Below, one piece after another: positions 2,229 to 64,000 of a stretch of 64,000 bases of DNA (positions within the stretch are counted from its first letter, which is position 1; the number at the start of each line of letters is the position of its first letter). A program made the translations under genes and the position numbers. The notes beneath the pieces are model-generated. The model saw only the letters and a list, made by a program, of their open reading frames with translations, made no database searches and was not told the DNA's origin. This DNA is from Phyllobates terribilis (lineage: Eukaryota). The stretch lies in contig NW_027362772.1 of NCBI RefSeq assembly GCF_046119375.1, positions 279,000,001 through 279,064,000 of the forward strand. The letters are read 5' to 3'.

Positions 2229-2273
2229 CTTGGGCAAGTACCGAGCAGTGGCGAGCACGCTCGCTCATCACTA
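2229..2273. mobile_element. Terminus of a hAT-type non-autonomous element into which element A inserted
   Basis: Ends CGCTCATCACTA, matching the hAT termini at 6989 (TAGTGTTGAGC), 24986 (CGCTCATCTCTA) and 58209. Confidence 0.55.
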
Positions 2274-2693: not shown

Positions 2694-2726
<33 letters not shown>

Positions 2727-2789
2727 CTATTGTGTATATCTGACTGTTTAAATGCAACATTACATCGAGCCAGCATGCACCATGGATGG

Positions 2790-35838: not shown

Positions 35839-35894
35839 ATATCTGTCGCGCCAGTTCGATGGGCCTGGTGATCTTTTTCCTGGGGGTTGGCCCT

Positions 35895-36875
35895 CTACCC
35901 CAGGTTGTGCCCATTTAAAGAACAGTACCTTGCCATATGTCCGGGTTGATTGCAGCGGCGGCAGATGGGTCGTCCGTCCTCGCTGTATCGGTCACTGGGT
36001 CTTCCTCTGGCCGGTGGGGTCCTCCTTGGTCGACGCCACGGGATGTCCTCCGGTCCGGATGCCAGCTGGATCTTCCCTGGGGTGGAAACCTGTAAAGACT
36101 GCACAGTTCGGGTTAGCGCAGCAACGCTCTTAGCTAGCTCTTGGACCTGATGGTGTAGGTCTGGAGCCGGGTCATTGTCCAAAGCCTGCGCATCAGCTCC
36201 CACAGGCCCTGCCGACAAGGGCGCCGCCTCCTGGTGGTAAGTAATAGCTGGGCGCCTGTGGGTCATAACGCCACCCGGTGCCGGTTCTCGGAGCACCCGG
36301 ATGGCTCTGTCCTTGAACTGTGCAAAGCCCAGATGGGGATCCTGTAAGGCCATCGCCCGCAACTGGGTTCGGTGGGCATTACAATACAGTCCCTCTATAA
36401 ATTGTTCAGTCAACAGCCTGTCCTCGTTTCCCACTCCATCAGGGTCGGTCTGCTTAATGGCCCTCAGGGCCTCTTGTAGGTTTAGTGCATAGTCCCTTAT
36501 ACTCTCATGCGCTCGCTGCTTGCACCCGTAGAATCTAAGCTTAATCTCGGCTGAGGTGCAGGTATCAAAGGTATCCTTCAGCCGGGTTAGTATCCCTGCG
36601 ACAGTATTCCTCCCAGGTGGCCAGGATTTTACTTCCCTTTTAGCTGCCCCGGTTAGTTGGGCCACCAGGATGCTCACTTTTTGCTCTTCTGTGAGGGGGT
36701 ACACCTGGAAGAGGCTATCCAGCTTTTCTCTAAAGTCATGCAGGGTAAGTGACTCCCCTGAGTACTGGGGTAGCCAAGCTGCTCCCGGGATATAGGGCAT
36801 GGTGAAGGGCATAACTGCAGCAGCGGTGGCGCTGGCGGGGGTTGAGGCAGTGAAGCTCTCCTCCGTATCCGACAT
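35895..36875 (-). CDS. Gag of element B, 326 aa, with a CCHC knuckle
   Basis: Intact ORF ending CRRCNQPGHMARYC; nearly identical to gag of C. Confidence 0.92.
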   Translation of the reverse strand: MSDTEESFTASTPASATAAAVMPFTMPYIPGAAWLPQYSGESLTLHDFREKLDSLFQVYPLTEEQKVSILVAQLTGAAKREVKSWPPGRNTVAGILTRLKDTFDTCTSAEIKLRFYGCKQRAHESIRDYALNLQEALRAIKQTDPDGVGNEDRLLTEQFIEGLYCNAHRTQLRAMALQDPHLGFAQFKDRAIRVLREPAPGGVMTHRRPAITYHQEAAPLSAGPVGADAQALDNDPAPDLHHQVQELAKSVAALTRTVQSLQVSTPGKIQLASGPEDIPWRRPRRTPPARGRPSDRYSEDGRPICRRCNQPGHMARYCSLNGHNLG

Positions 36876-38829
36876 CTTCCTCCCCGCTAGTGGACCGTGG
36901 CCTACCTTGCGATGATCCTGTTCCGTAGGCCGCGGCTCCGCAGTAGATCGTCAGGGTTGAGGACCTTCCGTCGCGCTCCGGTGACGTCGGCGTCTGCTGG
37001 GCTCCTTCCAGGACCTTACGCAACGTCCGGACGTGAGGCGGGGCTTCAGTTCTCGCGCGCTTTCGAAGTCCACGCCCCTCTTCTTCCCGCGCGGCGTCCT
37101 CAAGATGGCGTCCAACGGTGGGAAAACTCCACGGATGGCGGGAAGAAGGCCGAAGATGGCGCCGGATGGCGGGAAAACTTCGCGGATGGCGGGAAGAAGG
37201 CAGAAGATGGCGCCGGATGGCGGGAAACCTCACCACTGGTAAGTTTGAACAGTCTTTGCTTTTCAGGCACGCAGTACCCGGTGGTTGCGGGCACGAAATC
37301 CTGCCGACTACGCCAAAGTTGACGCGCCCCTGGGCCTGCTGTGTCGCGCAGCGTCTCGCGCACGGGGGCTTACCCGGAACCGGATCAGATGAGGGTTGTA
37401 GTCTCCGAGTGGCGGGGACCCGGTCCGTGCCCAGGGGGTCAGACTCAGTGTGTGGCAGTCTTGATAGATGTTATTTGAGTGTCGACTACGCCACCCGTTG
37501 ATTTGCAGCTATGGAGCTGCCGCTGCAGGGCAGACCGCTGAGGCCGGTGTAGAATTGTGCAGCGTGATAGTATAACCCCCAACGGGAGGGGTATGGCCTC
37601 AGGGCAGCCGACGTGGAAGATGGGGGTAGCAGGAACCACTCAGAGACGGTGCGGTGTAATTCAGGGTCTTTACTGGTAACAACGATAGACCCTCCCGGAG
37701 TACTTGCTAGCGAACGGGGCCTGGTCAGTCCTTGAGCAGATGGGATCTCCCCTGGCCAGGCGGAGTTGTAGGCCTCCCAAACTGACTGTACTCTTCTGGC
37801 TACCTTGCTAGAAGCGGATATAAGTAGCCCACGTCCCTGAGTGTACCGTGTGGTGCTCACCCGTATGGCCGGTGACTCGGGGCCTTCTATTGGCTTCCGC
37901 TCCACGATGGCAGTGCTGGTCCCACACGTGTGACCGTGCCTTCGGGTTTCTGGGCCTGAGGACCTGAAATCCCCTGCCGGTCGGCTTCTGCTGCTGGGTA
38001 AGAGTTAGTCCCCACAGCCTCGGACGCCGGGTCCGGTAAGAAAGCTTCTCAGTCAGGGCGAGCTCTGCAGCTGCCAGCCCCTGACTCGTAGTAGTATTGC
38101 TCCCACTGAGCTCCAGCTGTTTCTTCCTATGACTGTCTCTTGTCTCTACTCTCCTTGACTCCTAACCCTGCTTCAGCCCCGGGTTTATATAGGGGAAGTT
38201 CTTCCCCTCCCAAGACTGGGCAGGAGGTGTGGCATGCACAGGATCCCTGACCAAAGGACCTCCCACCTGCTCTCAGACATAACATCTCTATCACTGTGGC
38301 AACCAGACCCCTGGGGTGTCACATTGGGACCCGGACCTGTCCCTGCCACACTAGGGGAGCCCTGACTTTCCCTTATCTCAGGGGTACCTCTGAAGATGAG
38401 GAGGCCCGAGCCGCCAGTGTCTCCCTATCTCCTGCACAGGCCCTGTCAGTGACCCCCTATCCCCCAGGGAAGAAGACAGTACAATTAGGATGTTACTGTA
38501 ACAAGACAGGGAAAACAGACAGGGTAAACTGAAATGGCAAGCTCACCAAAAATACACTCACAGCCACAAGGGAAAACACAGGGAAAGCAGCAAGCAGCAA
38601 TCCCAAGGTAAACTTCCAACTACTCCAGACAACAGACTCCTTCTCCTCACTCCAGGTTAAGCAGAATGAACTGAACACCAACATCAGCTGAAGGGACATG
38701 TGACTATTTTTAGGGTGGAGCAAGAGATCACCAAGTTTAGCAAGGAAAGCTGACATTAACCCCTGATTGCCCAAAGGAAAAAACAGCATTTAAACAGCAA
38801 AATGACAGGGCCGTCACGAATCATTTAAT

Positions 38830-45842: not shown

Positions 45843-48418
45843 GAGTCATCTCTGCTACATCACTACATTGGATCTCCTACCTACTCAACTCTGCTATATC
45901 GCTGGGCTCTACTACAGTGAGTCCCTTAAACTACTCAACTCTGCTACATTGCTGGGCTCTGCTACATTGCTACAGGTGTGAAGGAGGAGAGGTGCAAACA
46001 AGAGGGACCTGAAGGCCTCTCTCTGCCACATAAGAAGATACAAGTTTTATGAAAGGCACATTTTGCAATTAGGCCCAGAAGCTTTAAATCAAATGTCCAA
46101 CTACTATACTAGACTGAACAGAGAATTTTCTATAAGTTGGATGAATTTATTTAAATACTTTTATGAAATCACAGCCAAAATTCATTGTCTTAGTTTGGAC
46201 ACATTTATGAAATATGTTGGAACTGTAACAAGTTCTTAATATTTTTTAAGACAAATGCATACCCCTGGAAATGTCATTTTAACATTTTACAACCTTATCT
46301 GGCCATGTGGTGTGTGACACATTATCAGATACATCCTGTTTCATTTATGATGGAGGGACTCTAAAAGTCACAAAGCCTATTTTTATAGGGCCATCAGGCA
46401 GACTTACTATTCTTAAAAGGCCAGCAGTCGGCCTTCGCTATTGTTAGAGAGCCATCAGCCGGCTATGCTTTGTTGTTCCCATTATTAACGAGTGGGTCTC
46501 CTATACTGTTATTGCGTATGCAGTGATTGCAAGGGCTGCCAAAAATTCGGACGCAACCCAATACCCCTTTGAAGAGACATAGAGGAAGGTCTTAGTAAAA
46601 AAAATGTTCCCATTATAAAGGAGCGGATCTATTATAGTGGTAATGCCCATGCTGTGACTGCAAAACCCCACTAAGAATTTAAAGACACATAGAGCAGGGG
46701 CACAGTAACAAGTACGACATGTTCCCATTAGAAAGGAGCGGGTGTGCTATACAGTTATAGGGTATGCAGTGAGTCCAACGGCTGACCAAATTTAGGAAAA
46801 ACTCCACTAAGAATTTAAAGACACATAGAGCAGGGCCACAGTAACGAGAAATTCCCATTAGAAAGGAGAGGGTCTCCCATAGTGTTGGCCTATGCAGTGA
46901 ATGCAAGGGCTGCCAAAAATTGGGAGACACTTCAATGCTCCTTGGAAGAGACTTAGAGAGCCTCATAAAAAAATATTCCCATTAGAAAGGAGCGGTTCTC
47001 CTATACTTGTAATGCCCATGCGCTAAGTGTATGTGTGGCACCCCAGGGGTCTGGTTTTCCACAGTAATGTAATGTTATGTCTGAGAGCAGGTGGGAGGTC
47101 CTTTGGTCAGGGATCCTGTGCATGCCACACCTCCTGCCCAGTCTTGGGAGGGGAAGAACTTCCCCTGTATAAACCCGGGGCTGAGGCAGGGTGAGTCAGA
47201 CAAGGAGAGTGGAGAAGAGAAGCAGCATAGGAAACAGCAGAGTTACTAGGAGTCAGGGGCTGGCAGCTACAGAGCTCGCCCTGACTAAGAAGATTCTTTA
47301 CCGGACCCGGAGTCCGAGGCTGTGGGGACTAACTCCTACCCAGCAGCAGAATCCGTCGGGCAGGGGATTTCAGGTCCTCTGGCCCAGAAGCCCGAAGGCA
47401 CGGTCACACGCGTGGGACCAGCACCGCCATCGTGGAGCGGAAGCCATTAGAAGGCCCCGAGTCACCGGCCATACGGGTGAGCACCACACGGTACACTCAG
47501 GGACGTGGGCTACTTACATCAGCTTCTAGCAAGGTAGCCAGAAGAGTACAGTCAGTTTGGGAGGCCTACAACTACGCCTGGCCAGGGGAGATCCCATCTG
47601 CTCAAAGACTGACCAGGCCCCGTTTGCTAGCAAGTACTCCGGGAGGGTCTGTCGTTGTTACCAGTAAAGACCCTGAACTACACCGTACCGTCTCTGAGTG
47701 GTTCCTGCTACCCCCATCATCCACGTCGGCTGCCCTGAGGCCATACCCCTCCCGTTGGGGGTTATACTATCACGCTGCACAATCCCACCATCGGCCTCAG
47801 CGGTCTGCCCTGCAGCAGCAGCCCCCTGGCTGCACTCAACGGGTGGCGTAGTCATCAACCATTTACTACTAATGGACTGCCGTCTAGTTTGACTCCCTGG
47901 GCACGGACCGGGTCACCGCCACGAGACTACAACCCTCCACAGATCCGGCTCCGGGTAAGCTCCCGCATGCGCAGCGCAGCGCGACACAGGCCCAGGGGCG
48001 CGTCAACTTTGGCGTAGTCGGCAGGATTTCGTGCCCGCAACCACCGGGTACTGCGTGCCTGAAAAGCAAAGACTGTTCAAACTTACCAGTGGTGAAGATT
48101 CCCGCCATCCGCGAAGTTTTCCCGCCATCCGGCGCCATCTTCGACCTTCTTCCCGCCATCCGTGGAGTTTTCCCGCCATTGGACGCCATCTTGAGGACGC
48201 CGCGCGGGAAGAAGAGGGGCGTGGACTCCGAAAGCGCGCGAGAACTGAAGCCCCGCCTCACGTCCGGACGTTGCGTAAGGTCCTGGAAGGAGCCCAGCAG
48301 ACGCCGACGTCACAGGAGCGCGACGGAAGGTCCTCAACCCTGACGATCCACTGCGGAGCCGCGGCCTACGGAAGAGGATCATCGCAAGGTAGGCCACGGT
48401 CCACTAGGGGGGAGGAAG

Positions 48419-49399
48419 ATGTCGGATACGGAGGAGAGCTTCACTGCCCCAACCCCCGCCAGCGCTACCGCTGCTGCAGTTATGCCCTTCACCATGCCCT
48501 ATATCCCGGGAGCAGCTTGGCTACCCCAGTACTCAGGGGAGTCACATACCCTGCATGACTTTAGAGAAAAGCTGGATAGCCTCTTCCAGGTGTACCCCCT
48601 CACAGAAGAGCAAAAAGTGAGCATCCTGGTGGCCCAACTAACCGGGGCAGCCAAAAGGGAAGTAAAATCCTGGCCACCTGGGAGGAAGACTGTCGCAGGG
48701 ATACTAACCCGGCTGAAGGACACCTTTAATACCCGCACCTCAGCCGAGATTAAGCTTAGATTCTACGGGTGCAAGCAGCGAGCGCATGAGAGTATAAGGG
48801 ACTATGCACTAAACCTACAAGAGGCCCTGAGGGCCATAAAGCAGACCGACCCTGATGGGGTGGGAAACGAGGACAGGCTGTTGACTGAACAATTTATAGA
48901 GGGTTTATATTGCAATGCCCACCGAACCCAGTTGCGGGCAATGGCCTTACAGGATCCCCATCTGGACTTTGCACAGTTCAAGGACAGAGCCATCCGGGTG
49001 CTCCGAGAACCGGCACCAGGTGGCGTTGTGACCCACAGACGCCCCACTACCACTTACTACCAGGAGGCGGCGCCCTTGTCAGCAGGGCCTGTGGGAGCTG
49101 ATGCGCAGGCTTTGGACAATGACCCGGCTCCAGACCTACACCATCAGGTCCAAGAGCTAGCTAAGAGCGTTGCTGCGCTAACCCGAACTGTGCAGTCTTT
49201 ACAGGTTTCCACCCCAGGGAAGATCCAGCTGGCATCCGGACCGGAGGACATCCCGTGGCGTCGACCAAGGAGGACCCCACCGGCCAGAGGAAGACCCAGT
49301 GACCGATACAGCGAGGACGGACGACCCATCTGCCGCCGCTGCAATCAACCCGGACATATGGAAAGGTACTGTTCTTTAAACGGGCACAACCTGGGGTAG
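48419..49399 (+). CDS. Gag of element C, 326 aa, with a CCHC knuckle
   Basis: Intact ORF ending CRRCNQPGHMERYC. Confidence 0.93.
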   Translation: MSDTEESFTAPTPASATAAAVMPFTMPYIPGAAWLPQYSGESHTLHDFREKLDSLFQVYPLTEEQKVSILVAQLTGAAKREVKSWPPGRKTVAGILTRLKDTFNTRTSAEIKLRFYGCKQRAHESIRDYALNLQEALRAIKQTDPDGVGNEDRLLTEQFIEGLYCNAHRTQLRAMALQDPHLDFAQFKDRAIRVLREPAPGGVVTHRRPTTTYYQEAAPLSAGPVGADAQALDNDPAPDLHHQVQELAKSVAALTRTVQSLQVSTPGKIQLASGPEDIPWRRPRRTPPARGRPSDRYSEDGRPICRRCNQPGHMERYCSLNGHNLG

Positions 49400-49433
49400 A
49401 GGGCCAACCCCCAGGAAAAAGATCACCAGGCCC
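49375..49433 (+). promoter_or_regulatory. Predicted -1 ribosomal frameshift signal: slippery heptamer plus H-type pseudoknot
   Basis: T TTA AAC in the gag frame, 8-nt spacer, stem 1 CCTGGGG/CCCCAGG, stem 2 GGGCC/GGCCC. Confidence 0.75.
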
Positions 49434-49455
49434 ATCGAACTGGCGCGACAGATAT

Positions 49456-52400
49456 GTGGGAGGACGTCCAGTCTTGCCTGTGGTACTGGATGGCATTCCC
49501 ATGAGTGCCCTACTGGATACCGGGTCACAGGTCACCACCATCCCGTACGTGCTCTTCAAGCAGTACTGGAATGACTCGGATATTACCCACTACCCTGACG
49601 ACGACTTGAGTATCATCGCCAGCAATGGCCAGCCCGTGCCACAGATCGGATTTAAGGAGGTGGCCCTCAAAATCGGTAGAGTCGAACTGGCCGCACAGGG
49701 ACTGATCATTGTAGATATTGATAAACATGAGAGTCACCCAAAAATAACTCTAGGAACTAACGTAATTGAAAATTGTCTTGCAGAGGTGATTTTCCTTTTA
49801 CAGCAGGTTGCCAAGAACGCCAGCTCCGGCGAGCAGCGGGTGCTCCAGAAAGAGATCCGGGCACTGATGCAACGGCAACAAGTGGAACTCTCCGGCGGTG
49901 AGATTGGTAGCGTAAGAATGTGTGACCCTTTTCCTATTGCCATGCCCCCAAAAAGTGAAATGATGATTTGGTGCCGGGCAGCTATTGGTCTGAGAGGAAG
50001 AGATTACCAGGCAATGGTAGAACCAGTTTACTCAGACAGTAGGCCCACCATTTTGACAGCACGGGGGGTGGTCAATGTACGCCATGGGAGGGTGCCCATT
50101 CGCATAATAAATATCGGGGAGAGGGAAGTGTACCTGCCCCGGTATGCCACGCTAGCCAAATTATATACCACTAATCAAAATTCTATACAATCTGTGGAAC
50201 CCTTGCCTCCATCTCACCCGGAGGACGGTAACGGCTCTAAGAAAGACATGGAGGACTGGTGTCAGCAACTACATTTGGGTACTGATTCCACTCCCTCACA
50301 TCAGAAACAAGGAGTCTATCGGGTGGTTCAAGAGTATGAGAGAGTGTTTAGTAAACACCCGTTAGACTTCGGGCGAGTCAAGGGGGTAGAACACCGCATC
50401 CCCACGGGAGATCATCCTCCCATAAAAGAGAGGTATCGACCCGTACCCCCTGCACATTACCAACACGCCAAGGGGATGCTTAGAGACATGAAGGAGGCTG
50501 GGGTAATCCGGGATAGCTGTAGCCCCTGGGCAGCCCCACTAGTTTTAGTCAAAAAGAAAGACAACACCATGAGGATGTGTGTAGATTACCGGAAAATCAA
50601 CCGTATCACACACAAGGATGCGTACCCCTTACCAAGGATAGAGGAGTCATTGGCTGCTTTAAGATCTGCTAACTTCTTCTCTACCTTGGATCTCACTAGC
50701 GGGTACTGGCAGGTTCCTGTAGCAGAGGCGGACCGGGAGAAGACCGCATTCACCACCCCGATGGGACTTAGTGAGTTCACCTGCATGCCGTTCGGACTCT
50801 GCAACGCCCCAGGAACCTTCCAACGATTAATGGAGTGCTGTCTGGGCCACAGAAACTTCGAGACGGTCCTGTTGTACCTGGACGATGTCATCGTATACTC
50901 CAAAACTTATGAGGACCACCTGAAACACCTGGCGGAGGTGTTCGAAGCTCTGGCGAGTTACGGCCTAAAGGTGAAACCCTCCAAGTGTCACCTCCTGAAA
51001 CCAAAGGTGCAATACCTGGGACACGTGGTGAGCGCTGACGGAGTGGCTCCCGACCCCGATAAGATCACCGCAATTAAGGGATGGCCAAGCCCCTCCAGCG
51101 TAAAAGAAGTGCGGCAGTTCCTAGGGTTGGTAGGCTACTACCGAAGGTTTATTCCCGGTTTCACCAAAAAGGCAGCGCCTATGCAGGACCTCCTGATAGG
51201 CCAGTCCCGGAAGGCCAAGAACCAGAAGCCGCCCTTCAAATGGGAAGAGCTAGAAGAAGAGTCCTTCCGCCAGCTGAAGATGGCCCTCACGGGGGATGAA
51301 ATCTTGGCGTACCCAGACTATAGCCAGCCCTTCATCCTCTACACCGACGCCAGTAACATCGGGCTAGGAGCCGTACTATCCCAGATTCAGCAGGGGAGAG
51401 AACGAGTGATCTCCTATGCCAGCCGAAAACTGCGACCCACCGAAAGGAACCCCGAGAATTACAGCTCATTTAAGCTAGAGTTCCTGGCCGTGGTATGGGC
51501 AGTCACCGAGCGCTTTAGGCATTACCTCGCTTCTTCCCGGTTCACCGTATACACGGATAACAACCCGTTGATACACCTGGACACGGCAAGACTCGGTGCC
51601 CTGGAGCAGAGGTGGATGGCCCGTCTGTCCAACTACGAGTTCACAATCAAATACCGGGCAGGACGCTCCAATACTAACGCCGATGCCCTGTCCAGGATGC
51701 CCAACCTGCCGGACGAAGGAGAAGATCCGGAGGGACTGGAAGAAGTTGAACTCCCTGCGTTCCACCGTCATGGGACTATCCAGTATTCCCACCGGGTAAG
51801 GGGTAAACAGGCTGCTACGTTGAACCCCTTACCCCACTACAACTGGGCGGAAACGCAAGACAGCGACCCTGCCGTCCGACTGGTGAAGGAGATGCTGACT
51901 CGGCCGGAGGCTCGACTTGAACCAGACGCTCCGGAGGAAGCCAAACAACTATGGGCGGAGAAGAGTCGACTATTCCTTTACAAGGGGAAGTTGTGCCGCA
52001 GAATGGTCAACTCCCAGACGCATGAACTACTCTGGCAAGTAGTGGTGCCACGAAGAGATGCAGCCATGGTGATGGAGGCATACCACGACGGAGCTGGACA
52101 CTTCGGGTGGAAAAAGCTGGAGTTCCTGCTGCGCGAGCGGTTCCACTGGGTAGGCATGAGGGGAACCATCGAGAAGTGGTGCAGAGACTGTGGCCCGTGC
52201 AATCTGAGAAGGAAGGACCGGGCCAGCCAGAAGACTCCCCTGCAGTCCATCGTCACCCGGCAACCGTTGGAACTGGTAGCCTTGGATCATGTAAAACTGA
52301 CCCCAAGCAGAAGTGGCTACGTCTACGCGTTAACCATCGTGGATCATTACTCCCGGTTCTTGGTTGTCGTCCCCGTCAAGGACTTAACGGCTCAAACAGC

Positions 52401-53511
52401 AGCTAGAGCCTTCCAGCAGCACTTCTGCCGTCCACACGGGTACCCGGACCAAGTGCTGACGGACCAGGGACCTGCCTTTGAAGCGGAGGTCTTCCAGGAA
52501 TTCTGCAATCTGTATGGCTGCCGGAAGATAAGGACGACACCCTACCATCCGCAAACTAATGGACTTTGTGAAAAAATGAACCAGGTGGTAATGGATCTGC
52601 TAAAAACATTGCCCCTGGAAGAACGCAGTCTGTGGCCTGAGAAGTTGCCCGATCTGGTGGACCTATACAACCACATCCCGGTAGGTTCCACCAACTGTAC
52701 CCCGGCTTACCTAATGAGGGCGAGACCTGGTAAGTTACCTGTTGACCTGGAAATGGGAGTCCTGACACCTGAGGACACTTCACCAGAAACAGACTGGGAC
52801 ACAGAGAGGCAGCAGCAGTACCGGAGAGTACAAGAGAGCGTGGAGCGAAGTCTCTGTCAGGCTAGGGAAAGACAAGAGAAGACTTACAACCAGTATGCTC
52901 CCGCTGTTCCCCTGGTACCCGGAGAGCAGGTCTTGAAGAGGAAAAGACGGCTCCACAAGTTGGATGACCAGTGGGAGGAGGACCCGTACACCGTACTGCC
53001 CTCAAGCCACGAGAACCCGAAGGTCTGTACCATCAGTAAAGACGGAGGGGAAACCACAGCCATTGTATCCCGGGACCACCTGAAGAAGTGTCCCGAACAA
53101 CTGAGGAACCCTGAAGAGGAACAAGAAGACCATCGACCCGTGGAAGAAAGGGAAGATATGGTTAGTACCGTGCTCGGGGACTTCCCTCAGTCTTGGACTC
53201 AAGTCAATGGTGCAGTTGTGGTACCCGTACTCACCTTCCTCCAACCATCATCCCAAGAACCTACGGAGCAACGGGTAGAGCTGGAAGAACAGCCGGTCCA
53301 GGAGGCAGAAGACTCCACACAAGCAGAACAGGAGAATCAACCCTCTGCTTATAGTGAGCCTGCCGTACCCCTAGTGAGACAAAGAGCCGGTAGACAGCTG
53401 CCCAGTTTACCCTTGACAGCTCCTACACCCTGTAGTTCAGGGCCAGACAGTCAGCTCTGTAGGTCCACTCGGGCCACTAGAGGCCAGTTACCCGCACGCT
53501 GGAGAATTTAA
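49456..53511 (+). CDS. Pol of element C (PR-RT-RNase H-IN), probably expressed by -1 frameshift from gag
   Basis: Uninterrupted 1351-aa frame, -1 relative to gag. Motifs LDTGS, YLDD, YTDAS, HDGAGH...CGPC, LDHV, TDQG, NGLCE. Confidence 0.95.
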   Translation: MGGRPVLPVVLDGIPMSALLDTGSQVTTIPYVLFKQYWNDSDITHYPDDDLSIIASNGQPVPQIGFKEVALKIGRVELAAQGLIIVDIDKHESHPKITLGTNVIENCLAEVIFLLQQVAKNASSGEQRVLQKEIRALMQRQQVELSGGEIGSVRMCDPFPIAMPPKSEMMIWCRAAIGLRGRDYQAMVEPVYSDSRPTILTARGVVNVRHGRVPIRIINIGEREVYLPRYATLAKLYTTNQNSIQSVEPLPPSHPEDGNGSKKDMEDWCQQLHLGTDSTPSHQKQGVYRVVQEYERVFSKHPLDFGRVKGVEHRIPTGDHPPIKERYRPVPPAHYQHAKGMLRDMKEAGVIRDSCSPWAAPLVLVKKKDNTMRMCVDYRKINRITHKDAYPLPRIEESLAALRSANFFSTLDLTSGYWQVPVAEADREKTAFTTPMGLSEFTCMPFGLCNAPGTFQRLMECCLGHRNFETVLLYLDDVIVYSKTYEDHLKHLAEVFEALASYGLKVKPSKCHLLKPKVQYLGHVVSADGVAPDPDKITAIKGWPSPSSVKEVRQFLGLVGYYRRFIPGFTKKAAPMQDLLIGQSRKAKNQKPPFKWEELEEESFRQLKMALTGDEILAYPDYSQPFILYTDASNIGLGAVLSQIQQGRERVISYASRKLRPTERNPENYSSFKLEFLAVVWAVTERFRHYLASSRFTVYTDNNPLIHLDTARLGALEQRWMARLSNYEFTIKYRAGRSNTNADALSRMPNLPDEGEDPEGLEEVELPAFHRHGTIQYSHRVRGKQAATLNPLPHYNWAETQDSDPAVRLVKEMLTRPEARLEPDAPEEAKQLWAEKSRLFLYKGKLCRRMVNSQTHELLWQVVVPRRDAAMVMEAYHDGAGHFGWKKLEFLLRERFHWVGMRGTIEKWCRDCGPCNLRRKDRASQKTPLQSIVTRQPLELVALDHVKLTPSRSGYVYALTIVDHYSRFLVVVPVKDLTAQTAARAFQQHFCRPHGYPDQVLTDQGPAFEAEVFQEFCNLYGCRKIRTTPYHPQTNGLCEKMNQVVMDLLKTLPLEERSLWPEKLPDLVDLYNHIPVGSTNCTPAYLMRARPGKLPVDLEMGVLTPEDTSPETDWDTERQQQYRRVQESVERSLCQARERQEKTYNQYAPAVPLVPGEQVLKRKRRLHKLDDQWEEDPYTVLPSSHENPKVCTISKDGGETTAIVSRDHLKKCPEQLRNPEEEQEDHRPVEEREDMVSTVLGDFPQSWTQVNGAVVVPVLTFLQPSSQEPTEQRVELEEQPVQEAEDSTQAEQENQPSAYSEPAVPLVRQRAGRQLPSLPLTAPTPCSSGPDSQLCRSTRATRGQLPARWRI

Positions 53512-55127
53512 AGTGTATAAATTGTTTTATTTATGTTTTTCTGTGTATTGTTGCTTGTGAATAATTTTGTGTTTCCAGTTGTTTTTAGGAAACCTTGGTG
53601 GATTTACCGGGAATCCTTGTATATAGTTGGAGCGTAACCCAGGATGGACTAGAGACTGTTAAGGACTCGGGGTAGGACAGACCCCTACCTGGTTACGTCT
53701 CCCTGTGTTGGTGAAATGGACACCTTTGCTTTTCTTCAAAGACTGCACCCGGTTGCGGACACGCCGCAACCATCTTATGTGTTTTTCTTATAGTATTGTT
53801 ATTGTTATACTTTGTTATGTTTTTCTAAATGTGTTTAGTCCCGGAGTACTAAATTTCACTAGGGGGGAATGTGGCACCCCAGGGGTCTGGTTTTCCACAG
53901 TAATGTAATGTTATGTCTGAGAGCAGGTGGGAGGTCCTTTGGTCAGGGATCCTGTGCATGCCACACCTCCTGCCCAGTCTTGGGAGGGGAAGAACTTCCC
54001 CTGTATAAACCCGGGGCTGAGGCAGGGTGAGTCAGACAAGGAGAGTGGAGAAGAGAAGCAGCATAGGAAACAGCAGAGTTACTAGGAGTCAGGGGCTGGC
54101 AGCTACAGAGCTCGCCCTGACTAAGAAGATTCTTTACCGGACCCGGAGTCCGAGGCTGTGGGGACTAACTCCTACCCAGCAGCAGAATCCGTCGGGCAGG
54201 GGATTTCAGGTCCTCTGGCCCAGAAGCCCGAAGGCACGGTCACACGCGTGGGACCAGCACCGCCATCGTGGAGCGGAAGCCATTAGAAGGCCCCGAGTCA
54301 CCGGCCATACGGGTGAGCACCACACGGTACACTCAGGGACGTGGGCTACTTACATCAGCTTCTAGCAAGGTAGCCAGAAGAGTACAGTCAGTTTGGGAGG
54401 CCTACAACTACGCCTGGCCAGGGGAGATCCCATCTGCTCAAAGACTGACCAGGCCCCTTTTGCTAGCAAGTACTCCGGGAGGGTCTGTCGTTGTTACCAG
54501 TAAAGACCCTGAACTACACCGTACCGTCTCTGAGTGGTTCCTGCTACCCCCATCATCCACGTCGGCTGCCCTGAGGCCATACCCCTCCCGTTGGGGGTTA
54601 TACTATCACGCTGCACAATCCCACCATCGGCCTCAGCGGTCTGCCCTGCAGCAGCAGCCCCCTGGCTGCACTCAACGGGTGGCGTAGTCATCAACCATTT
54701 ACTACTAATGGACTGCCGTCTAGTTTGACTCCCTGGGCACGGACCGGGTCACCGCCACGAGACTACAACCCTCCACAGATCCGGCTCCGGGTAAGCTCCC
54801 GCATGCGCAGCGCAGCGCGACACAGGCCCAGGGGCGCGTCATATGGGCTGACAAACATTTACCCCTAGGGGGTATACATGAACATACTGTATAAAAAAAA
54901 AATTTTAAGGACATCATAAACACCCTTTAAAAAAATTATGTGGGTGTTCCATCACGGACCACGGTTACCCTGGTGATGTGGTGGTGGAGGATGAGGATGA
55001 GGAGGAGTAGGAAAAGAGCAAATAGCCAAAATCAGGAAGTGTATACCCATGTGTGGGTGTGAAAAGGTGCATGGGAATACACCTCCCAAAAAAAGACAGT
55101 GGATTTGAGTTTATGTTATGCTGCTAT

Positions 55128-58100
55128 TGTGGCGCCCCTGCGGGTTCAGTGGACACAGAGGTACTGCATCTCACCCAGAGGTGTGGTATCCCACTCTCAG
55201 GTAAGGATGGAGTACTGCCCAGGACCCAAACACCTGCATCCAACACTACACTACTCCAGACAGCAGGAGGGGCAAGATCCATTGCTGCGCTGCTGAGCCC
55301 TGACCCTGGCTGGAGTGGGGGGAACCAAGAGGGGAACTATGTAGTGGGTGTGAGTGGAGGAAGCAGTTCAGGGGAGCACTTGAGAAGGAGGATATAAAAA
55401 GGGGAAGCCATCTTGGGAGTGTGAGAACAGTCTGAGGGAACAGTGAGGAGAGAGTGTGTGGAGCAGGAGCTCTGCAGGAGCTCTGCTCAGGAGGAGGGCC
55501 TAGTGAGAGAGGCCCAGGACAGACTGAAGAGAGGAGAGGAACAGGAAGGAAGGCTCCAGAATAGAAAGGATCCCAGGGGCACGGGCAGTGCGGATGCCAC
55601 CCGTGCGCCCGAATCCACCAGGAGTGGAAGGATCAGGCCGCAGAGAGGGGACCGGCCCCTAAACTAGCAGAGTTCTTCAAGTCTCAACTAGATAACCGGA
55701 GGCTGCAGCATTTCAGGTGCTGCAGCCAACAGCCACATCTAATCGCTAAAAAGGTGACCATAGAGGACCCAGGGGACAGAGAAGACGTCGCCAGACAGTG
55801 TCCGCAGTCACTGGCTTGGGACACTCAGTGTGAGGCGCAGGGCAGGAGGGTGAGAGCCAGCGCAGGAAGACGACTAGAAAAGGCACACAGAACGGGGTCC
55901 CGTTACGTACTCCGGAGGTACCTGGGAGTTTGCTGAACCCCTCCCAGGGTAAACACAGGATGGCGTGGGGAGTTACCCTGGCCCTGGTAACTTGGAGTCT
56001 AAAAATCGTGAGTAAAACCCTGAAGACTGCACCCCACTGTCTCTGCGAATTATTACTGCGCCATCATCCCCTGCACCGCTCTGCACAACAGCAACATCTA
56101 TTACATCCCCACTACTCTGCCCTGGAGCTAAGCTCTACCCGTGGAGAGCTGAACCAACTCTGCTGCATTAACAACAGCTCCAGAGAACCTGCTCCACAGC
56201 GGTGGCTCCTTTTAGCCGCATACCACAGGTGGCGTCACGAACATTTCATAAAAACTATAATCCTTTTCTTTAAAACCCCTTTTAATTGACCGCCCTGAGT
56301 CACGGACCAGGTCACCGCCACTGTGACATCTCCCCTAGCAACGACAGGCCCGGCTACCGAGTACCCCACGGCCCAGGGGGCGCGTCATTATTTTGGCGTC
56401 ACGAACAGGATATGAACTTACCCGTTATCACCGGGTATTGTGCGCCTAGAGACTGTGTTCTATACTGAATGTGGCGCCCACCCTAGAAGAACGGGCGTCA
56501 TTATGTGCGTTATCAAGGATGACAAGAAACCTCCCATCGTAGGCCGGGTTCCAGAATGGCGCCAAAAGCACAACCCGCCCCATGCGCCTGTGGCCATATA
56601 CCTGGATCTGTCCATCAGTCTGGGGAAGCTGCCTCCGGGTGTGGCTGACAGCAAGCAGCCATGGGACCGCCCCAGAAAGGGGAGAGGAGAGAAGAAACCT
56701 GGGAGACAGGGCGAAGTTTCCAGCAGTCTAGACAGACCGCACCCGGCAGGCAAGATGGAGAGAGGTCAGCCTGAAGCTCCGTCTTGTGGTCTGCAGCCCG
56801 AGGCAGAACCCCTCACCATGGAGGGGATGCTAACAAAGTTGTCCCTGGAGGACACCAGCTTTATCCGGGATGAGATGCAAGAACTGGGCAGGAGGATGGA
56901 AGAGGCCCAGCAAGCTGCGATTGCTGCCTGAAGAGTGGACCTGGTGGAGAAGTTGATGACCCGGCAGCAGTCGGCGTTGCAAGTGACCGGCAGTGCTCCG
57001 GCCCCGGCGGAGCTGCACACAGACCAGGAGGTGTCAGTCGCGGGAGCAGGTAGGAGAGATCCCCCTGTCCTGGACGTGGCTGGCGCTGCTCCGTCCCTCT
57101 TCCCTCTGGCGGAACCTTGGTCTCCGGGCGCTCACGCCACAGAACTGCTCCTGGGCCTGGAACCATCAACCCCGGGCGCTGGTGATGCAGACCTGCTCCT
57201 GTGCCCCCTGCTAGAGCCACATGCCTCTACACCTGAATGGGTGTACGGACGCACGGCCTGGGACTGGTCCGCGGAGGTGGAAGACCAGAGCCTCCCGTTG
57301 CTGCCCTCTCCTGTGCTCTCAGTCGCCCACCAGGAAGAAGGAGATCCATTCCTGTGGGATAACCCGGGAGGGGACCTCATGGGCCTTCCCCGGGAGGAGC
57401 ATTGCCGGCGGGAGCTCCTGCAGTTGGAAAGGAGCGGCGCATCTGGCGGGTGCGCTGGGAGAAGATGGAGGCGAGGAACATGGAGGAGAAGACTCGGGCC
57501 CGCAAGGCAAAAACAGCCGCACCCAGTCCCCACGTAGAAGGGACTGTCGTGAAGTTCGACCTGGATGCCGGGTGGGGCTTCATCAGAGAGCCACAGGTCG
57601 CGACGGATTTATTTGTTAATCGGAGGGACGTGGAGTCCCACCTCCAGCAAGGACATCCTGACCGAGATCTGTACCCTGGTGACCGAGTCACCTACACCAG
57701 GCATAGAGGTGAGCGGCGCTGGTATGCCCTGAATGTATACAGGGTAGTGGAGGAGGACATGCCCCTGCAATCAGAGGCTGATGACCCGGCTGGGCCAGCC
57801 TACAGCAGACAGGTGTCTCCCCGGAGGAAGCACCACTACTAAGCACAGTATGTGAAACTGAACTGTACTGTATATAGTTAACCGGAAGGGTACATCCTTG
57901 TTTGAGTGAACTAAAAAGTTTTGTGTGCATGATTACCCGGTAAGGGTAAACAAACTGACAGGCTGAGGACTGTGAGCAGACAAAAACTTTTAAACTGTAC
58001 ATAGTTTGCACTTATTAAAGTGCCTCTTATTGGTGTTATATTAAAAGACCACTGAACAAAAACCTGTTTGGCGAGGCCGAAGATGTGGTCCAACAGCTGG

Positions 58101-58208
58101 ATCACCTATGCCCTGAAGCCACGCCCAGGGCCTACGTGGACGGTTTGCGGACAGGTCCCTCATGTTGCTCAAATTGCACCTTCTCCAGTGAGATGGACAC
58201 CCGGTTAT
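55128..58208 (+). mobile_element. Non-autonomous LTR element D carrying a cold-shock-domain ORF; interrupted at 58209, 3' LTR not in the window
   Basis: 1260-bp LTR at 55128-56387 (TGTGGCG...GCGTCA). PBS tRNA-Ser(CGA) at 56394-56411. No gag or pol motifs in the visible part. Confidence 0.8.
56503..57842 (+). pseudogene. Element D protein: N-terminal conserved block, coiled coils, DLMG motif and C-terminal cold-shock domain (57540-57743); one TGA and one frameshift
   Basis: GTVVKFDLDAGWGFI...DLFVNRRDV...LYPGDRVTY...YALNV matches the CSD RNP1/RNP2 pattern. TGA at 56929-56931 aligns to a Trp in E. About 1-nt deletion near 57427. Confidence 0.8.
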
Positions 58209-59939
58209 TAGTGTTGAGCGAGCACTAAAATGCTCGGGTGCTCGAAGCTCGGGCCGAGCTCGCCGTGATACTCGGGTGCTCGACCCGAGCAACGAGCCCA
58301 ATGTTAGTGACGCGCCCCCTGGGACATATTCCTTTTTGAGGGGAATACCCGGCACCGGATCAGATGGGGGGTTGTAGTCTCCGAGCGGCTGTGACCCGGT
58401 CCGTGCCCAGGGCGTCAAACTCAGTGTTATGTGGCAGTCCTACAGATGTTATTAAGAGTTCTTTTGTGTCGACTACGCCACCCGTTGTGATGCGGTCACT
58501 GTGGCCGCCGCTGCAGCAGGGTCCGCTGAGGCTGATGGTGGGTGCGCAGCTTGGTGGGATAACCCCCAACGGGAGGGGTATAGCCTCAGGGGGGACAGGT
58601 GCAGAGGATGGGGGTTGTGGTGGTGCAGTGCAGACGGCAATGAAGACAGAGTCGGGTTGTGCAGTTAAGGGTGTTTACTTACTGCAGATGTTGTACTGGT
58701 CACTCCAGCTTCGAGTGACCACCCGAGCCGTGCTGCGTCCACCAGGTCCTGGATCCAGCCAACCCCCAAACAAGTCCGGAGCGTGGCCCTGAGCTCTCCT
58801 TCTGTCCCGTTCTCTGGCCGTCCCCACCAGTGATCCACCTAGGTCCAGCTCCCTCGGGCCTTCTGTTGGGACACCCTTGGCCTTGGGTTCCCTGACCCTT
58901 CATGTGGTGTGCCTTCGGGGTGGATGTGATGGGTGACCGTGGCAAACGCTGCCCACGGTCTCCGGTCTCTGGCTAGGGTGTGTTTTCTGCCCCCACCAGC
59001 TTGGGTTCCGGTACCCTGTGCCGACTCCTCACCCGGTGCTTTAATTTGGGTTCTTGGGTCCTCTCTGTTTTCCCCTCTGGGTACTCCTTCTCTGCTCCTC
59101 TCTCACTCAGGGTCTTTCTTCTCCTCTGCTCGCTGACTTGTTCTCTGCATCTGACCCTGTTCTTAGTTGGTGCCCACCTTATATACACCCTCTATGTGTG
59201 AGCTCAGGTGACCAGCACCCAATGAGCTCCTATCTTTACCCAGGCTGCTCCCCCTATCTGCCCCTACACTACTTGGGATGTACCACCCCCCTCCCACTCC
59301 AGCCAGGAACAGACTCGGTCGTACCTGCACATTTCTAAGTGGGAGTACCGTCGGCCTGTTCCTCGGAAATGGGATGTGTGTAGTGCATGCAGCCTACCGA
59401 GCTCAGTTTCACACTCCTTCCTTACCCGGGAGTGGAATATCACACCTCTGGGTTGAGGTGCAATACCCCTGTAGCAGCCGAATCCTCAGGGTGCTACATT
59501 CCCCCCTGGTAAATCACAGCACGTCCTCGGGCTGTAAGACATAAATAACACCAAAACATACATTTTTTTTTTTCATAAACATATAAAACAACATATATTA
59601 GCAAATAAAACATTCTCGTCGCCTCTGGCTCCTCCTCCGGTCACTGTGCAACGTGTGACCGGGTACAGTGCGACAGTCTTTCTAGAAAACATAGTTTTCC
59701 TATAAAACCAGTAGGGGGCGCTTTAGGAAGCGCAACTATTTACAGGGGAAGTTGGCCGCTCTCAGTCCTCGGCCAGGTAAAGGGAAGGGAATGGCTGCTC
59801 ACAGTCCTCAGCCTGATATGGATACGGAATAACGGGTGAACAGTTCACTCAGCTGGTCCCAACGGGGACTATATATATGTAGCAACAGTTTCTTTGTACC
59901 CCGGTCGGGTAACTATTTACATCTACTGCTCTGCCGCAC

Positions 59940-60908
59940 TCAACGGCGTCTTCCTCCTGCTCTTTGCTTGTAGCTGGTTGTAACTTCAGACCCGTCCGGG
60001 TCCTCTTGCTCTTCCTCCTCACACCGCAGCTCTTCCTCCGTCAGGCGATGCACATGGAGGGCGTAGGGACCTTTGGCACACTTGTGCCGGGTGAAGGTGA
60101 CCTCGTCCCCGATGTAAAGGTCACGACCTCTGTGTCCCTCCGGTAGGTGGGACTCAACGTCTCTCCTGGTTACGAAGACGTCGCCTAGGGTGTGGTGGTC
60201 TCGGATGAAGCCCCACCCATGCTGCAGGTTAAACTTTATCACAGTCCCGGTGGTGCGGGGACTATGCGCTGCACGGGGGTCTCTCCTGGCCCGGCTCTTC
60301 TGCTCCGCGCTCCTTACTTGAGCTTGCTGTTCCCGGACCCGCCTCTCTCTCCGCTCCCTTGCGAACTCTTCGAGCTGCTGTCGGCAACACTCAGCACGCT
60401 CCGCTGCAGCTGCCCTGGTTTCCTGAGTGAACCCCATTAGATCTTCTCCGGTGGGGTCCCACTCAAACTGTGCTTCCGCTAGCGGGGGCGAGATCCGTGC
60501 CACGGGCTTCGGAGCCGGAATCAGGGGTTCATCCAGGGGTCTTAGTCTCTGCTGCCGTTCCAGCTCATGGTATTCTTCGGGCCAGATGAAGGGCCGACCG
60601 TCCGGCCATGTGAGCTGGCTGAACAAGACCTCCCCCAGGTGTGGCACCCTTGGTTTTACGGGCGCGGGCGCGGTGGTGGTGGCGCCCGGGTTGCCCAGGC
60701 CTTGCGGCCAGGCCTGGGGCACCTGGAAGGTGAAGGGCACCGCTAGGACGGCGGCGCCCTGGGCTACCTGGCCTTGCGGCCAGGCCGGAGGCTCCGCGGA
60801 GGTAGGGGGCGCTGTTGGTGATGCGGCGCCCGGGGGTACTAGGCCTTGCGACCAGGCTGGTGGTATTTCCTGCTTTGTCACGCTCCGGGTCGAGGCGCGT
60901 GACGTCAC
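59940..60908 (-). CDS. Element E ORF2 (322 aa): Pro/Gln-rich repeats, WDPTGEDLMG motif, coiled coil and cold-shock domain (60045-60248)
   Basis: GTVIKFNLQHGWGFIRDHHTLGDVFVTRRDVESHLPEGHRGRDLYIGDEVTFTRHKCAKGPYALHV. The start codon is a GTG overlapping the ORF1 stop. Confidence 0.75.
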   Translation of the reverse strand: MTSRASTRSVTKQEIPPAWSQGLVPPGAASPTAPPTSAEPPAWPQGQVAQGAAVLAVPFTFQVPQAWPQGLGNPGATTTAPAPVKPRVPHLGEVLFSQLTWPDGRPFIWPEEYHELERQQRLRPLDEPLIPAPKPVARISPPLAEAQFEWDPTGEDLMGFTQETRAAAAERAECCRQQLEEFARERRERRVREQQAQVRSAEQKSRARRDPRAAHSPRTTGTVIKFNLQHGWGFIRDHHTLGDVFVTRRDVESHLPEGHRGRDLYIGDEVTFTRHKCAKGPYALHVHRLTEEELRCEEEEQEDPDGSEVTTSYKQRAGGRRR

Positions 60909-61768
60909 AGGGGTCGCTGCGGCGGCTTCCGGTTGGGCCTAGTCCATAGCGGTGACATGGCGGCTACGGGCACAGCAGGGGGACTTTCGGGCTCTGCGAC
61001 GGGGAGCTGGGGCAGGTACGCGGTTTCCCGGTTTGGGGTGTAGGCGTCCCCTTTACCTGCCTCCATGCGTTCGGCTCCCTTCTCGGCGTCGTCTCCGGCC
61101 TTTGGTCCTCCCGCGCCATCCTCAGAGGCGGTCTGTTTCCTCTTCCAGGGTAGCGTGCTCCGTTGACTGGTCTCAGCTTGCTGGGCCATCTCCCGGCTCC
61201 ATTCCGCCAATATCTCGCGCTGTACCCGGGCCATCCTCCTTGCGAGGCCCTCCAGAGCGGTCTGTGCACACTCCCGGTCTCGGGGGAGCTGTGCAAGGAC
61301 CTCCACTAGGCCTAGTGGGGTCGTGGTGTCTAGCAGGCTCCTGACCAACGGGTCGGTGCTGCTCTGCTCTTCCTCCAGCAGGCTCCTGGCCAGCGGGCCG
61401 GTGCTGCTCTGCTCGCCTTCCTCGGTCTCTAGCAGACTCCTGGCCAGCGGGCCGGTGCTGTTCTGCTTTCTCTCCATGTCCGGGTAAGCTCCTCCGCTAC
61501 TCCTCGTTAGACTTCTTGCCTCCGGGTGCGCTCGCTCCAGACTGCTCCAGGCGGCACCCATCTTCGTTCTTTTCTTTCGTCTCCTCCCACTTCGAGGGCG
61601 GTCCCGGGGCAACTCGGTGACTGTCAGCTCCAGGGGCAGTTCTTTCACGCTGACAGACACCTCTAGCATCACAGTCTCTGTTGGTGGGGGCGGTTTCCAC
61701 TTTTGGCGCCATTTTCTGTCCTGGCCCACGATGGGAGGCGGCCTCCTGCCCTCCTTTGGCACGCCCAT
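60905..61768 (-). CDS. Element E ORF1 (287 aa from the first ATG; frame open from 62047): N-terminal block and coiled coil shared with D
   Basis: MGVPKEGRRPPPIVGQDRKWRQKWKPP...LP...PRDRPRSGR aligns with D MCVIKDDKKPPIVGRVPEWRQKHNPP...LP...PWDRPRKGR. Confidence 0.65.
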   Translation of the reverse strand: MGVPKEGRRPPPIVGQDRKWRQKWKPPPPTETVMLEVSVSVKELPLELTVTELPRDRPRSGRRRKKRTKMGAAWSSLERAHPEARSLTRSSGGAYPDMERKQNSTGPLARSLLETEEGEQSSTGPLARSLLEEEQSSTDPLVRSLLDTTTPLGLVEVLAQLPRDRECAQTALEGLARRMARVQREILAEWSREMAQQAETSQRSTLPWKRKQTASEDGAGGPKAGDDAEKGAERMEAGKGDAYTPNRETAYLPQLPVAEPESPPAVPVAAMSPLWTRPNRKPPQRPL

Positions 61769-64000
61769 AATGGCGTCCGCTGCTCTTCCAAGGCGGGAAA
61801 TCTTCGGATTTGGCGGGAAGCGTCGCCCAGTGGCGGGAAACTCTGCAGATGGCGGGAACAAGCTGGAAATGGCGGACAATCGGCGGGAAACGACCTGTGA
61901 TGGGGTCCGATGGCGTGGACCCTCCGGAACCGGCGGGAGACTTCTTTCTGAGGTAAACTTGCACTTTTCTTCAGGCACGCAGTACCCGGGTGTTGCGGGC
62001 ACGTAATCCTGCCGACTACGCCAAAGTTGACGCGCCCCCTGGGACATATTCCTTTTTGAGGGGAATACCCGGCACCGGATCAGATGGGAGTTGTAGTCTT
62101 CCGAGTGGCTGTGACCCGGTCCGTGCCCAGGGTGTCAAACTCAGTTGTATGTGGCAGTCCTACAGATGTTATTAAGAGTTCTATCCTGCCGACTACGCCA
62201 AAGTTGACGCGCCCCCTGGGACATATTCCTTTTTGAGGGGAATACCCGGCACCGGATCAGATGGGGGGTTGTAGTCTCCGAGCGGCTGTGACCCGGTCCG
62301 TGCCCAGGGCGTCAAACTCAGTGTTATGTGGCAGTCCTACAGATGTTATTAAGAGTTCTTTTGTGTCGACTACGCCACCCGTTGTGATGCGGTCACTGTG
62401 GCCGCCGCTGCAGCAGGGTCCGCTGAGGCTGATGGTGGGTGCGCAGCTTGGTGGGATAACCCCCAACGGGAGGGGTATAGCCTCAGGGGGGACAGGTGCA
62501 GAGGATGGGGGTTGTGGTGGTGCAGTGCAGACGGCAATGAAGACAGAGTCGGGTTGTGCAGTTAAGGGTGTTTACTTACTGCAGATGTTGTACTGGTCAC
62601 TCCAGCTTCGAGTGACCACCCGAGCCGTGCTGCGTCCACCAGGTCCTGGATCCAGCCAACCCCCAAACAAGTCCGGAGCGTGGCCCTGAGCTCTCCTTCT
62701 GTCCCGTTCTCTGGCCGTCCCCACCAGTGATCCACCTAGGTCCAGCTCCCTCGGGCCTTCTGTTGGGACACCCTTGGCCTTGGGTTCCCTGACCCTTCAT
62801 GTGGTGTGCCTTCGGGGTGGATGTGATGGGTGACCGTGGCAAACGCTGCCCACGGTCTCCGGTCTCTGGCTAGGGTGTGTTTTCTGCCCCCACCAGCTTG
62901 GGTTCCGGTACCCTGTGCCGACTCCTCACCCGGTGCTTTAATTTGGGTTCTTGGGTCCTCTCTGTTTTCCCCTCTGGGTACTCCTTCTCTGCTCCTCTCT
63001 CACTCAGGGTCTTTCTTCTCCTCTGCTCGCTGACTTGTTCTCTGCATCTGACCCTGTTCTTAGTTGGTGCCCACCTTATATACACCCTCTATGTGTGAGC
63101 TCAGGTGACCAGCACCCAATGAGCTCCTATCTTTACCCAGGCTGCTCCCCCTATCTGCCCCTACACTACTTGGGATGTACCACCCCCCTCCCACTCCAGC
63201 CAGGAACAGACTCGGTCGTACCTGCACATTTCTAAGTGGGAGTACCGTCGGCCTGTTCCTCGGAAATGGGATGTGTGTAGTGCATGCAGCCTACCGAGCT
63301 CAGTTTCACACTCCTTCCTTACCCGGGAGTGGAATATCACACCTCTGGGTTGAGGTGCAATACCCCTGTAGCAGCCGAATCCTCAGGGTGCTACATTAGT
63401 CTATGGAAGACCCGAGCAGTTTTGCGGTGGCACCCCCGGCAGTCTTTTAAAAGCTTAACAAGTGCCCAAAACGATAGTGACAGTGCTCAAATGACATGGG
63501 GACAGCATGGGGATCGCCCCAGGAAGCATTTCTAACCCCCAGGTCATTGCTGTCAACAACGTGGTCAGAGGTATTAAGCCACTTTTAAGGGCTCACAATA
63601 AAACGTTCAAAAACGAAACTGAAACTGCTTTACTGTGAAATATGTTAAGGAAGTTCCTTTCCAGGGTAAAGACTTGTGTATAAGATAAAATAAATAACCC
63701 CCCCAAAAAATACTCCACCACACCTTGGGCTATGTTCACAAGTAGCATTTTTTTATGCGTTTTTGCACTTTTGTATTGCTTTCAACCGTGACAAATGCAT
63801 TCACAGGGAAATGTCATTTTAACATTTTACAACCTTATCAGGCCATGTGCTGTGTGACACATGCATACAGTGCTGAAAGACATGGGAACAGCATGGGGAA
63901 GACCCCTGGAAGCATCTCTGACACCCAGGTCACCGCCTAAAAGTGTGCCCATCAGTAGTGATCCTTGCCGCATCAGAAGATGCAGACTTGCAACTATCCC

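Follow-up and report, generated by a model that had tools for sequence, protein, structure and literature searches.

The stretch of DNA considered here (the window) comprises 64,000 nucleotides of the genome of the poison frog Phyllobates terribilis (assembly GCF_046119375.1, contig NW_027362772.1, positions 279,000,001 to 279,064,000 of the forward strand). Near its end lies element E (58308-63395, minus strand), a non-autonomous long terminal repeat (LTR) retrotransposon whose interior holds, in place of gag and pol, a single gene ending in a cold-shock domain (CSD). The 5' LTR (62205-63395, minus strand) and the 3' LTR (58308-59498, minus strand) are both 1191 bp long, end in TG...CA and show no mismatch, and the element is flanked by a 4-bp target-site duplication (TSD), TTAG, at 58304-58307 and 63396-63399. 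The primer-binding site (PBS; 62183-62200, minus strand) is complementary to the 3' end plus CCA of genomic tRNA-Ser(AGA), called as such by ARAGORN in three of the five tRNA loci fetched for this match, and the polypurine tract (PPT; 59499-59509, minus strand) is the same tract that precedes the 3' LTR in the fetched copies. Since the LTRs show no differences, a rate of 2.5e-9 used for a poison frog (bioRxiv 10.1101/2023.11.06.565769) places the insertion within the last ~0.5 million years. A preliminary description of this DNA, made from the letters alone, had proposed the identical LTRs, the TSD, the PBS, the PPT and a recent origin, all of which held. It had also described an interior free of gag and pol, and Pfam indeed found only the CSD there, with no Gag similarity; neither protease, reverse transcriptase, RNase H nor integrase was detected in this copy by Pfam, in the LTR pairs among the loci chosen by their LTR (see below) or in 26 aligned members of the family.

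Between the PBS and the gene lies a leader with six TCCCGCC-type repeats (61769-62005, minus strand), partly common to autonomous elements, which is a candidate packaging signal. It is preceded by a tandem duplicate of the LTR end with a second PBS (62006-62182, minus strand). This 177-bp duplication (62006-62200 with the original PBS; halves 94% alike) is private to E, being found in none of the 80 other fetched loci, and is perhaps the product of a template switch during reverse transcription. A search of Rfam over 55000-64000 gave no match at the gathering level.

The preliminary description had treated the CSD frame ("ORF2") as a separate gene. This part has to be corrected: that frame and the one upstream form one gene of ~590-620 codons, open in most other copies and broken in the window copy near 60,935. 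When a 165-amino-acid frame was searched against the frog's own genome (10.57 Gb), 132 of the 150 matches listed (96-100% identity) lay in an open frame of 654-831 codons, and one had a TAG in the matched part. The 5' half of the gene (60935-61768, minus strand) extends to the break from a probable start codon at 61768, placed there by cross-subfamily conservation, as a related motif opens the gene in three subfamilies. According to alignment and model, it includes a conserved amphipathic helical region with heptad-like spacing (61178-61318, minus strand). The 3' half (59940-60935, minus strand), described from copies and the fold model, comprises a Pro/Ala-rich linker, a conserved long charged helix (60282-60416, minus strand), the CSD directly after it (60048-60251, minus strand) and an acidic tail. 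The AlphaFold2 model was built on a 26-row alignment of natural copies and used instead of the single-sequence fold, which was poor (mean predicted local distance difference test, pLDDT, 46.6); it predicts a 45-residue helix directly before the CSD and another, of 37 residues, towards the N-terminus, the rest being disordered. Modelled as two copies to look for self-association, the N-terminal helix (residues 126-190) scored 0.01, which without controls speaks neither for nor against it. The CSD is the only Pfam family shared by the 26 aligned members (26/26); the 380-amino-acid upstream frame matched no Pfam family, and the ESM Atlas returned no match at 0.9 or above.

That the protein ends in a CSD, as first described, is confirmed by its PF00313 score (35.4 bits against a cut-off of 27; E 9.6e-9) and by a predicted five-strand OB fold (pLDDT 84-94). 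With Foldseek, CspA comes first (target TM 0.88-0.90; YBX1/2, 0.78), and sequence profiles against solved structures give YBX1/YBX2 as the best match, YBX1 being ahead of CspA by ~1 bit; identity is ~31-36% to YBX1/YBX2 and CspA, and ~31% to YBX1. A Y-box protein is a plausible donor of the domain because of this lead of YBX1 and because the loop joining strands 3 and 4 matches that of YBX proteins in length. CSDE1 was also considered as a donor and rejected: the top PF00313 cluster of the genome, which we take to be a CSDE1-like retrocopy, falls apart from the element CSDs. This retrocopy (L051-L052 among the numbered fetched loci) is intronless and interleaved with LINE sequence. Another diverged CSD (L137:7907-8260), nearest to the Bufo protein P0125, has no LTR pair in the fetched DNA.

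E is one member of a very large family. A 22-mer from the CSD of its subfamily matched the genome 17,122 times with up to one mismatch (control, 0), and the CSD family as a whole, divided into several subfamilies of which at least three are recognised here, runs to tens of thousands of copies. Twenty loci chosen by the CSD, mostly ones with a long frame, proved without exception to be complete elements; the LTRs of each pair are 98.9-100% alike, and a single frame has the CSD at its end. Twenty others chosen by the LTR gave 17 pairs enclosing this gene or its deletion, three solo LTRs and no gag or pol, so that the 40 E-type loci comprise 37 LTR pairs and three solo LTRs; the 4-bp TSD was scored in 38 of the 40 and is visible by reading in the other two. 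Many of the TSDs flanking L031-L090 alternate purines and pyrimidines over their four bases (TATA, CATG, TATG), which may reflect a preference of the integrase.

Next to E stands another CSD element, an older one of subfamily F (55128-58200, plus strand). Its 5' LTR (55128-56387, plus strand) and CSD (57537-57743, plus strand) are in the window, its homologous gene is broken, and the element is interrupted near 58200, with the 3' LTR outside the window. A profile search of the window found only these two CSDs. The PBS of the F element differs from that of E, has 1,198 exact matches in the genome and presumably corresponds to another tRNA-Ser. Genome copies of subfamilies F and G also have LTR pairs and duplications, and the proteins of the three subfamilies (open frames of 454-635 amino acids) align at 30-45% identity. 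The original claim that CSD copies are tied to paired LTRs with 4-bp TSDs is therefore borne out in the fetched E, F and G loci. One subfamily-G element with paired LTRs and TSD (L141:2854-7945) sits inside another autonomous Gypsy element. In L142, L144 and L145, the PBS is extended into T-arm and variable-arm sequence resembling tRNA-Ser, followed in two of them by LTR junction letters, as though reverse transcriptase had read on into the primer tRNA.

The gene is under strong purifying selection. The ratio of nonsynonymous to synonymous substitution rates (dN/dS) of the CSD was 0.10 (95% codon bootstrap, 0.04-0.21) in pairwise comparison of 11 intact LTR-chosen copies, one partly deleted copy being left out, and 0.08 (0.04-0.14) at a dS of 0.75 in 13 copies chosen by the PBS; these intervals are optimistic, as the pairs are non-independent and only open copies were used. 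Elsewhere in the gene, the ratio was 0.11 for the helix before the CSD (including the WD..GEDLMGF motif that precedes it), 0.06-0.18 for the N-terminal helix and ~0.4-0.7 for the linkers, a contrast that is not explained by non-independent pairs or by the choice of open copies. In the first 55 codons dS is low, which suggests constraint at the RNA level. Two further results were set aside: a ratio of 0.06 from the 20 CSD-chosen copies, biased by how these were found, and the excess of indels in multiples of three (gene, 14/14; LTR, 11/61; 3' untranslated region, 28/87), because those 14 copies had been picked as intact. The preliminary description would have been abandoned if the domain had matched no CSD, if CSD copies had stood apart from LTRs or if they had evolved neutrally; a match, a consistent association and selection were found instead.

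E moves by the LTR route without encoding the enzymes, and candidate helpers stand in the same window. Element D (47034-54841, plus strand) is an autonomous Ty3/Gypsy element by its domain order, with a 351-amino-acid Gag, a 1402-amino-acid Pol frame, LTRs 99.9% alike and a 4-bp TSD, and element C (30419-38323, minus strand) is of the same autonomous type, 94% like D, with its Pol frame interrupted once and the same PBS and leader. E, C and D have in common the PBS, the last LTR bases, the start of the leader, its short repeats and 4-bp TSDs. In wheat, the Cereba/Quinta partners were paired by having the same PBS, LTR termini and 3' part of the LTR (PMC11302176). By this standard, the fit of E to D/C is partial: the PBS is identical, the LTR termini are nearly, not fully, identical, and the 3' part of the LTR reaches 73-77% identity over ~270-350 nucleotides, and the region spanning the PBS and the adjoining leader 78-80%. 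Exact copies of the LTR-PBS junction number 38,102 in the genome. Behind the first 40 of them on one contig (the PBS-chosen sample; 4 kb read behind each) stood the CSD gene in 18 (uninterrupted in 13), gag/pol in 15, deletion derivatives in six and something else in one; L109, which holds the CSD tail only, was left out of the 18. The gag/pol of the 15 was 84-99% like that of D, and none of the 40 had both CSD and gag/pol within 4 kb of the PBS. From these shared signals, the D/C family is the likely helper of E. Both partners also have an open frame that spans the LTR end, the PBS and the leader: at 61769-62047 (minus strand) in E, in frame with the CSD gene and allowing a possible upstream start, and at 47888-48343 (plus strand) in D.

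According to these data, E moves by reverse transcription between LTRs, lacks the enzymes for it, and belongs to lineages that keep a three-part protein under selection. We consider it somewhat more probable than the reverse that it is a non-autonomous satellite of a Ty3/Gypsy family whose own CSD protein binds its RNA and aids its use of helper particles. E keeps the cis signals of D/C (tRNA-Ser primer site, leader, LTR ends and PPT) and, as these suggest, would borrow capsid, reverse transcriptase and integrase from the helper. Where gag-pol would stand, it encodes a single, largely disordered protein in which three parts are under selection: an amphipathic helix towards the N-terminus, the long charged helix and, at the C-terminus, the CSD. 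Most likely translated from the full-length RNA, this protein would bind the element RNA through the CSD and coat or chaperone it, and the helices may let it self-associate or dock to a partner, so that the RNA would survive in the germ line and compete for helper particles. The protein would improve mobility without being strictly needed. A dispensable gene of a parasite can stay under selection only if the gain returns mostly to the copy that encodes it or to close relatives of that copy, and this argues for a preference in cis. The arrangement recalls LINE-1 ORF1p, which combines a coiled coil with an RNA-binding domain. Host YB-1 supports the RNA metabolism and virion production of human immunodeficiency virus (PMC6040738), which by analogy may be a precedent for the kind of role proposed.

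Several points weigh against this satellite with a cis-acting protein. Both the RNA-binding role and the production of the protein are predictions from sequence and model. Nine sequencing runs contained part of the interior, none of them recorded as RNA, and the four that were aligned consisted of contigs, which say nothing on transcription. The preliminary equation of GWGFI and DVFV with RNP1 and RNP2 holds for the RNP1 aromatics and the first RNP2 Phe, which are retained, and fails for the RNP2 His and the aromatic after it: together with the strand-1 Trp, these positions of CspA/YBX1 have been replaced, by Lys, Thr/Asn and Arg among them, so that the full stacking surface is not present. 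Because three RNA-stacking positions are replaced, canonical melting activity is not assured, and binding may be more electrostatic than that of CspA. Another autonomous family could be the helper, because D has only parts of the LTR of E in common. Finally, the long helix and the CSD have repeatedly been lost through deletion between short direct repeats (L084, L096, L103, L159-L198), and 448 CSD-less copies share one in-frame microhomology junction. On a tree, 42 such copies cluster (9 changes, against a mean of 30 for shuffled labels) and form pure clades of seven and five copies, which fits some spread without the CSD in cis. Deletion and intact copies have equal nearest-neighbour distances at the same sample size (0.032 vs 0.029), and the upstream gene of deletion copies shows the same dN/dS pattern as that of intact ones. 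This pattern is compatible both with repeated origin from unsampled intact parents and with real spread. Splicing was rejected as the source of the deletions, since those junctions that were mapped closely fall within short direct repeats.

The apparent ability of CSD-less copies to spread also bears on the main rival, which casts the protein as an anti-silencing or translation factor acting in trans, one that shields the RNAs of element and helper alike from Piwi-interacting RNA or other germ-line control, or counters masking by host Y-box proteins, making the two mutualists. We regard this as unlikely, if worth serious attention. In the PBS-chosen sample, CSD elements roughly equal the helper family in number (18 vs 15 of 40), YBX1/YBX2 are the solved structures that the CSD matches best by sequence, and Gypsy RNA is plentiful in poison-frog ova (PMC6278860). 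However, shorter CSD-less copies should take over if the benefit were purely in trans, yet one such junction counts 448 copies against 17,122 CSD matches, all deletion types together make up 6 of the 24 family members in the PBS-chosen sample, and the protein shows no similarity to a known suppressor.

A less probable explanation is that the gene is an accessory frame of a past or present autonomous Gypsy element, the family being its gag-pol deletion derivative and the protein continuing its old role for the partner. The leader and LTR end shared with D speak for such a descent, as do the CSDs found beside retroviral genes in bird endogenous retroviruses (ERVs; PMC12287698). D itself, however, has no CSD, with pol separated from the 3' LTR by just ~360 bp, and no CSD turned up in the 4 kb behind the PBS of any of the 15 gag/pol elements, whose 3' ends lie outside the reads. 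Nor was there a Gag-Pol-CSD fusion among 8000 candidates or a match to any protein of 962-2745 amino acids, which is a weak test. It is very improbable that the protein is an extremely diverged Gag whose zinc-knuckle nucleocapsid was replaced by the CSD, which would make E semi-autonomous like Quinta or MaLR. The gene does sit at the Gag position, directly after the PBS, and a helical N-terminal part followed by a C-terminal nucleic-acid-binding domain is a Gag-like layout; yet no Gag family was found in the 26 aligned members, the protein showed no similarity to the Gag of D (best E 1.8), and the model consists of two isolated long helices and long disorder, with no capsid fold among its listed PDB and BFVD structural matches. 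We give even less credence to a protein that serves the frog, for example as a decoy restraining the helper family: CSD proteins are established host post-transcriptional regulators, yet there are thousands of dispersed recent insertions with different TSDs, and selection acts along element lineages rather than at one locus. A captured host fragment riding neutrally, or a frame kept only for RNA stability, is barely credible. Any frame can stay open in very young copies, yet a domain-specific dN/dS of 0.08 at a dS of 0.75 counts as a refutation unless the alignments are wrong, and the gene is preserved across three subfamilies and in three further frog species.

These relatives came from a search of 1.84 billion representatives, in which the best single-domain matches were gene models of P. 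terribilis (85%), Ranitomeya variabilis, Anomaloglossus baeobatrachus and R. imitator. Poison-frog proteins annotated as "uncharacterized" have the same diverged CSD plus the preceding helix. The "Y-box-binding protein 2-A-like" of Bufo bufo and some unnamed records have a related CSD, with tree support (88/87) that is not strong, in a tree that contained no YBX sequence, element copies having swamped the search for host YBX exons. The NCBI frog models fall in the same CSD clade as E and are annotated as host genes, their link with LTRs being one that we infer; frog gene models called "Y-box-like" or "CSD-containing" may thus be transposon copies.

Elsewhere in the window, a chromodomain Gypsy element with a single frame of 1375 amino acids is inserted in a 108-110-bp satellite array (16465-21450). 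An older LTR pair (85%) with a Tc1-type transposase frame, and hAT fragments (BED finger, dimerisation domain) nearby, occupy 1113-9222, 5614-6639 and 9199-13314.

An LTR element that is non-autonomous would be expected to have no coding interior or to encode Gag only, and a selected RNA-binding protein of host type points to an unstudied step in the competition for a helper. The coexistence of intact and CSD-less copies, in hundreds to thousands, offers a natural test. The E subfamily represents ~80-85 Mb (17,122 x ~4.9 kb), a figure inflated by duplicated contigs and truncated copies and excluding the other subfamilies, and so bears on the expansion of poison-frog genomes, in which much LTR sequence is unclassified (bioRxiv 10.1101/2023.11.06.565769). 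On a wider view, which we hold tentatively and at slightly less than even chances, this is a class of coding satellites: an old frog lineage that dropped gag-pol, captured a Y-box-like CSD in an adaptor protein, steers helper particles or escapes germ-line silencing in the manner of satellite viruses, equals its helper in number and adds measurably to poison-frog genome size.

MaLR keeps a Gag-like frame, and the interiors of LARD and TRIM elements are non-coding. All of them resemble E in having LTRs, a PBS and a PPT and no pol; E differs in that its interior codes, and does so for a selected gene other than Gag, no Gag-homologous frame of the Quinta or MaLR kind having been found in it. YBX1/YBX2 and CspA have the five-strand OB fold, the RNP1 aromatics and the first RNP2 Phe in common with its CSD; unlike in Y-box proteins, the domain is C-terminal, follows a long helix and has no Y-box tail. 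The preliminary description knew of no CSD-encoding LTR family. This needs qualifying, as capture of the domain has been published for birds: 46 ERVs have a PF00313 CSD, acquired on several occasions in what the authors interpret as possible adaptation (He et al. 2025, PMC12287698). They resemble E in carrying this domain inside vertebrate LTR retroelements. They are retroviral (ERV-A/B, ERV-G), were found by their reverse transcriptase and are described as occasional captures, whereas E is Gypsy-linked, lacks gag/pol, has ~17,000 copies of one subfamily and encodes a dedicated protein under purifying selection; in the LTR-chosen sample and in the 4 kb read for each PBS-chosen element, no retroviral reverse transcriptase or other retroviral gene shares an element with the CSD. 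The claim stands for a Gag-less family, as no paper was found on a Gag-less or non-autonomous LTR family that has a CSD gene at its core, Repbase, Dfam and most subscription papers being outside the scope of the search. The closest parallel in way of life is RLG_Quinta of wheat, a long-lived non-autonomous Gypsy family whose intact frame encodes Gag and a further, unknown domain (Heuberger et al. 2024, PMC11302176). Like E, it has the PBS, the LTR termini and the 3' part of the LTR in common with its helper, RLG_Cereba; E differs in having no Gag homology and a recognisable RNA-binding domain instead. Capture of a CSD by LTR retroelements and Gag-bearing non-autonomous Gypsy partners were thus already known, and what E appears to add is an LTR family that has no recognisable Gag and centres on a CSD gene.

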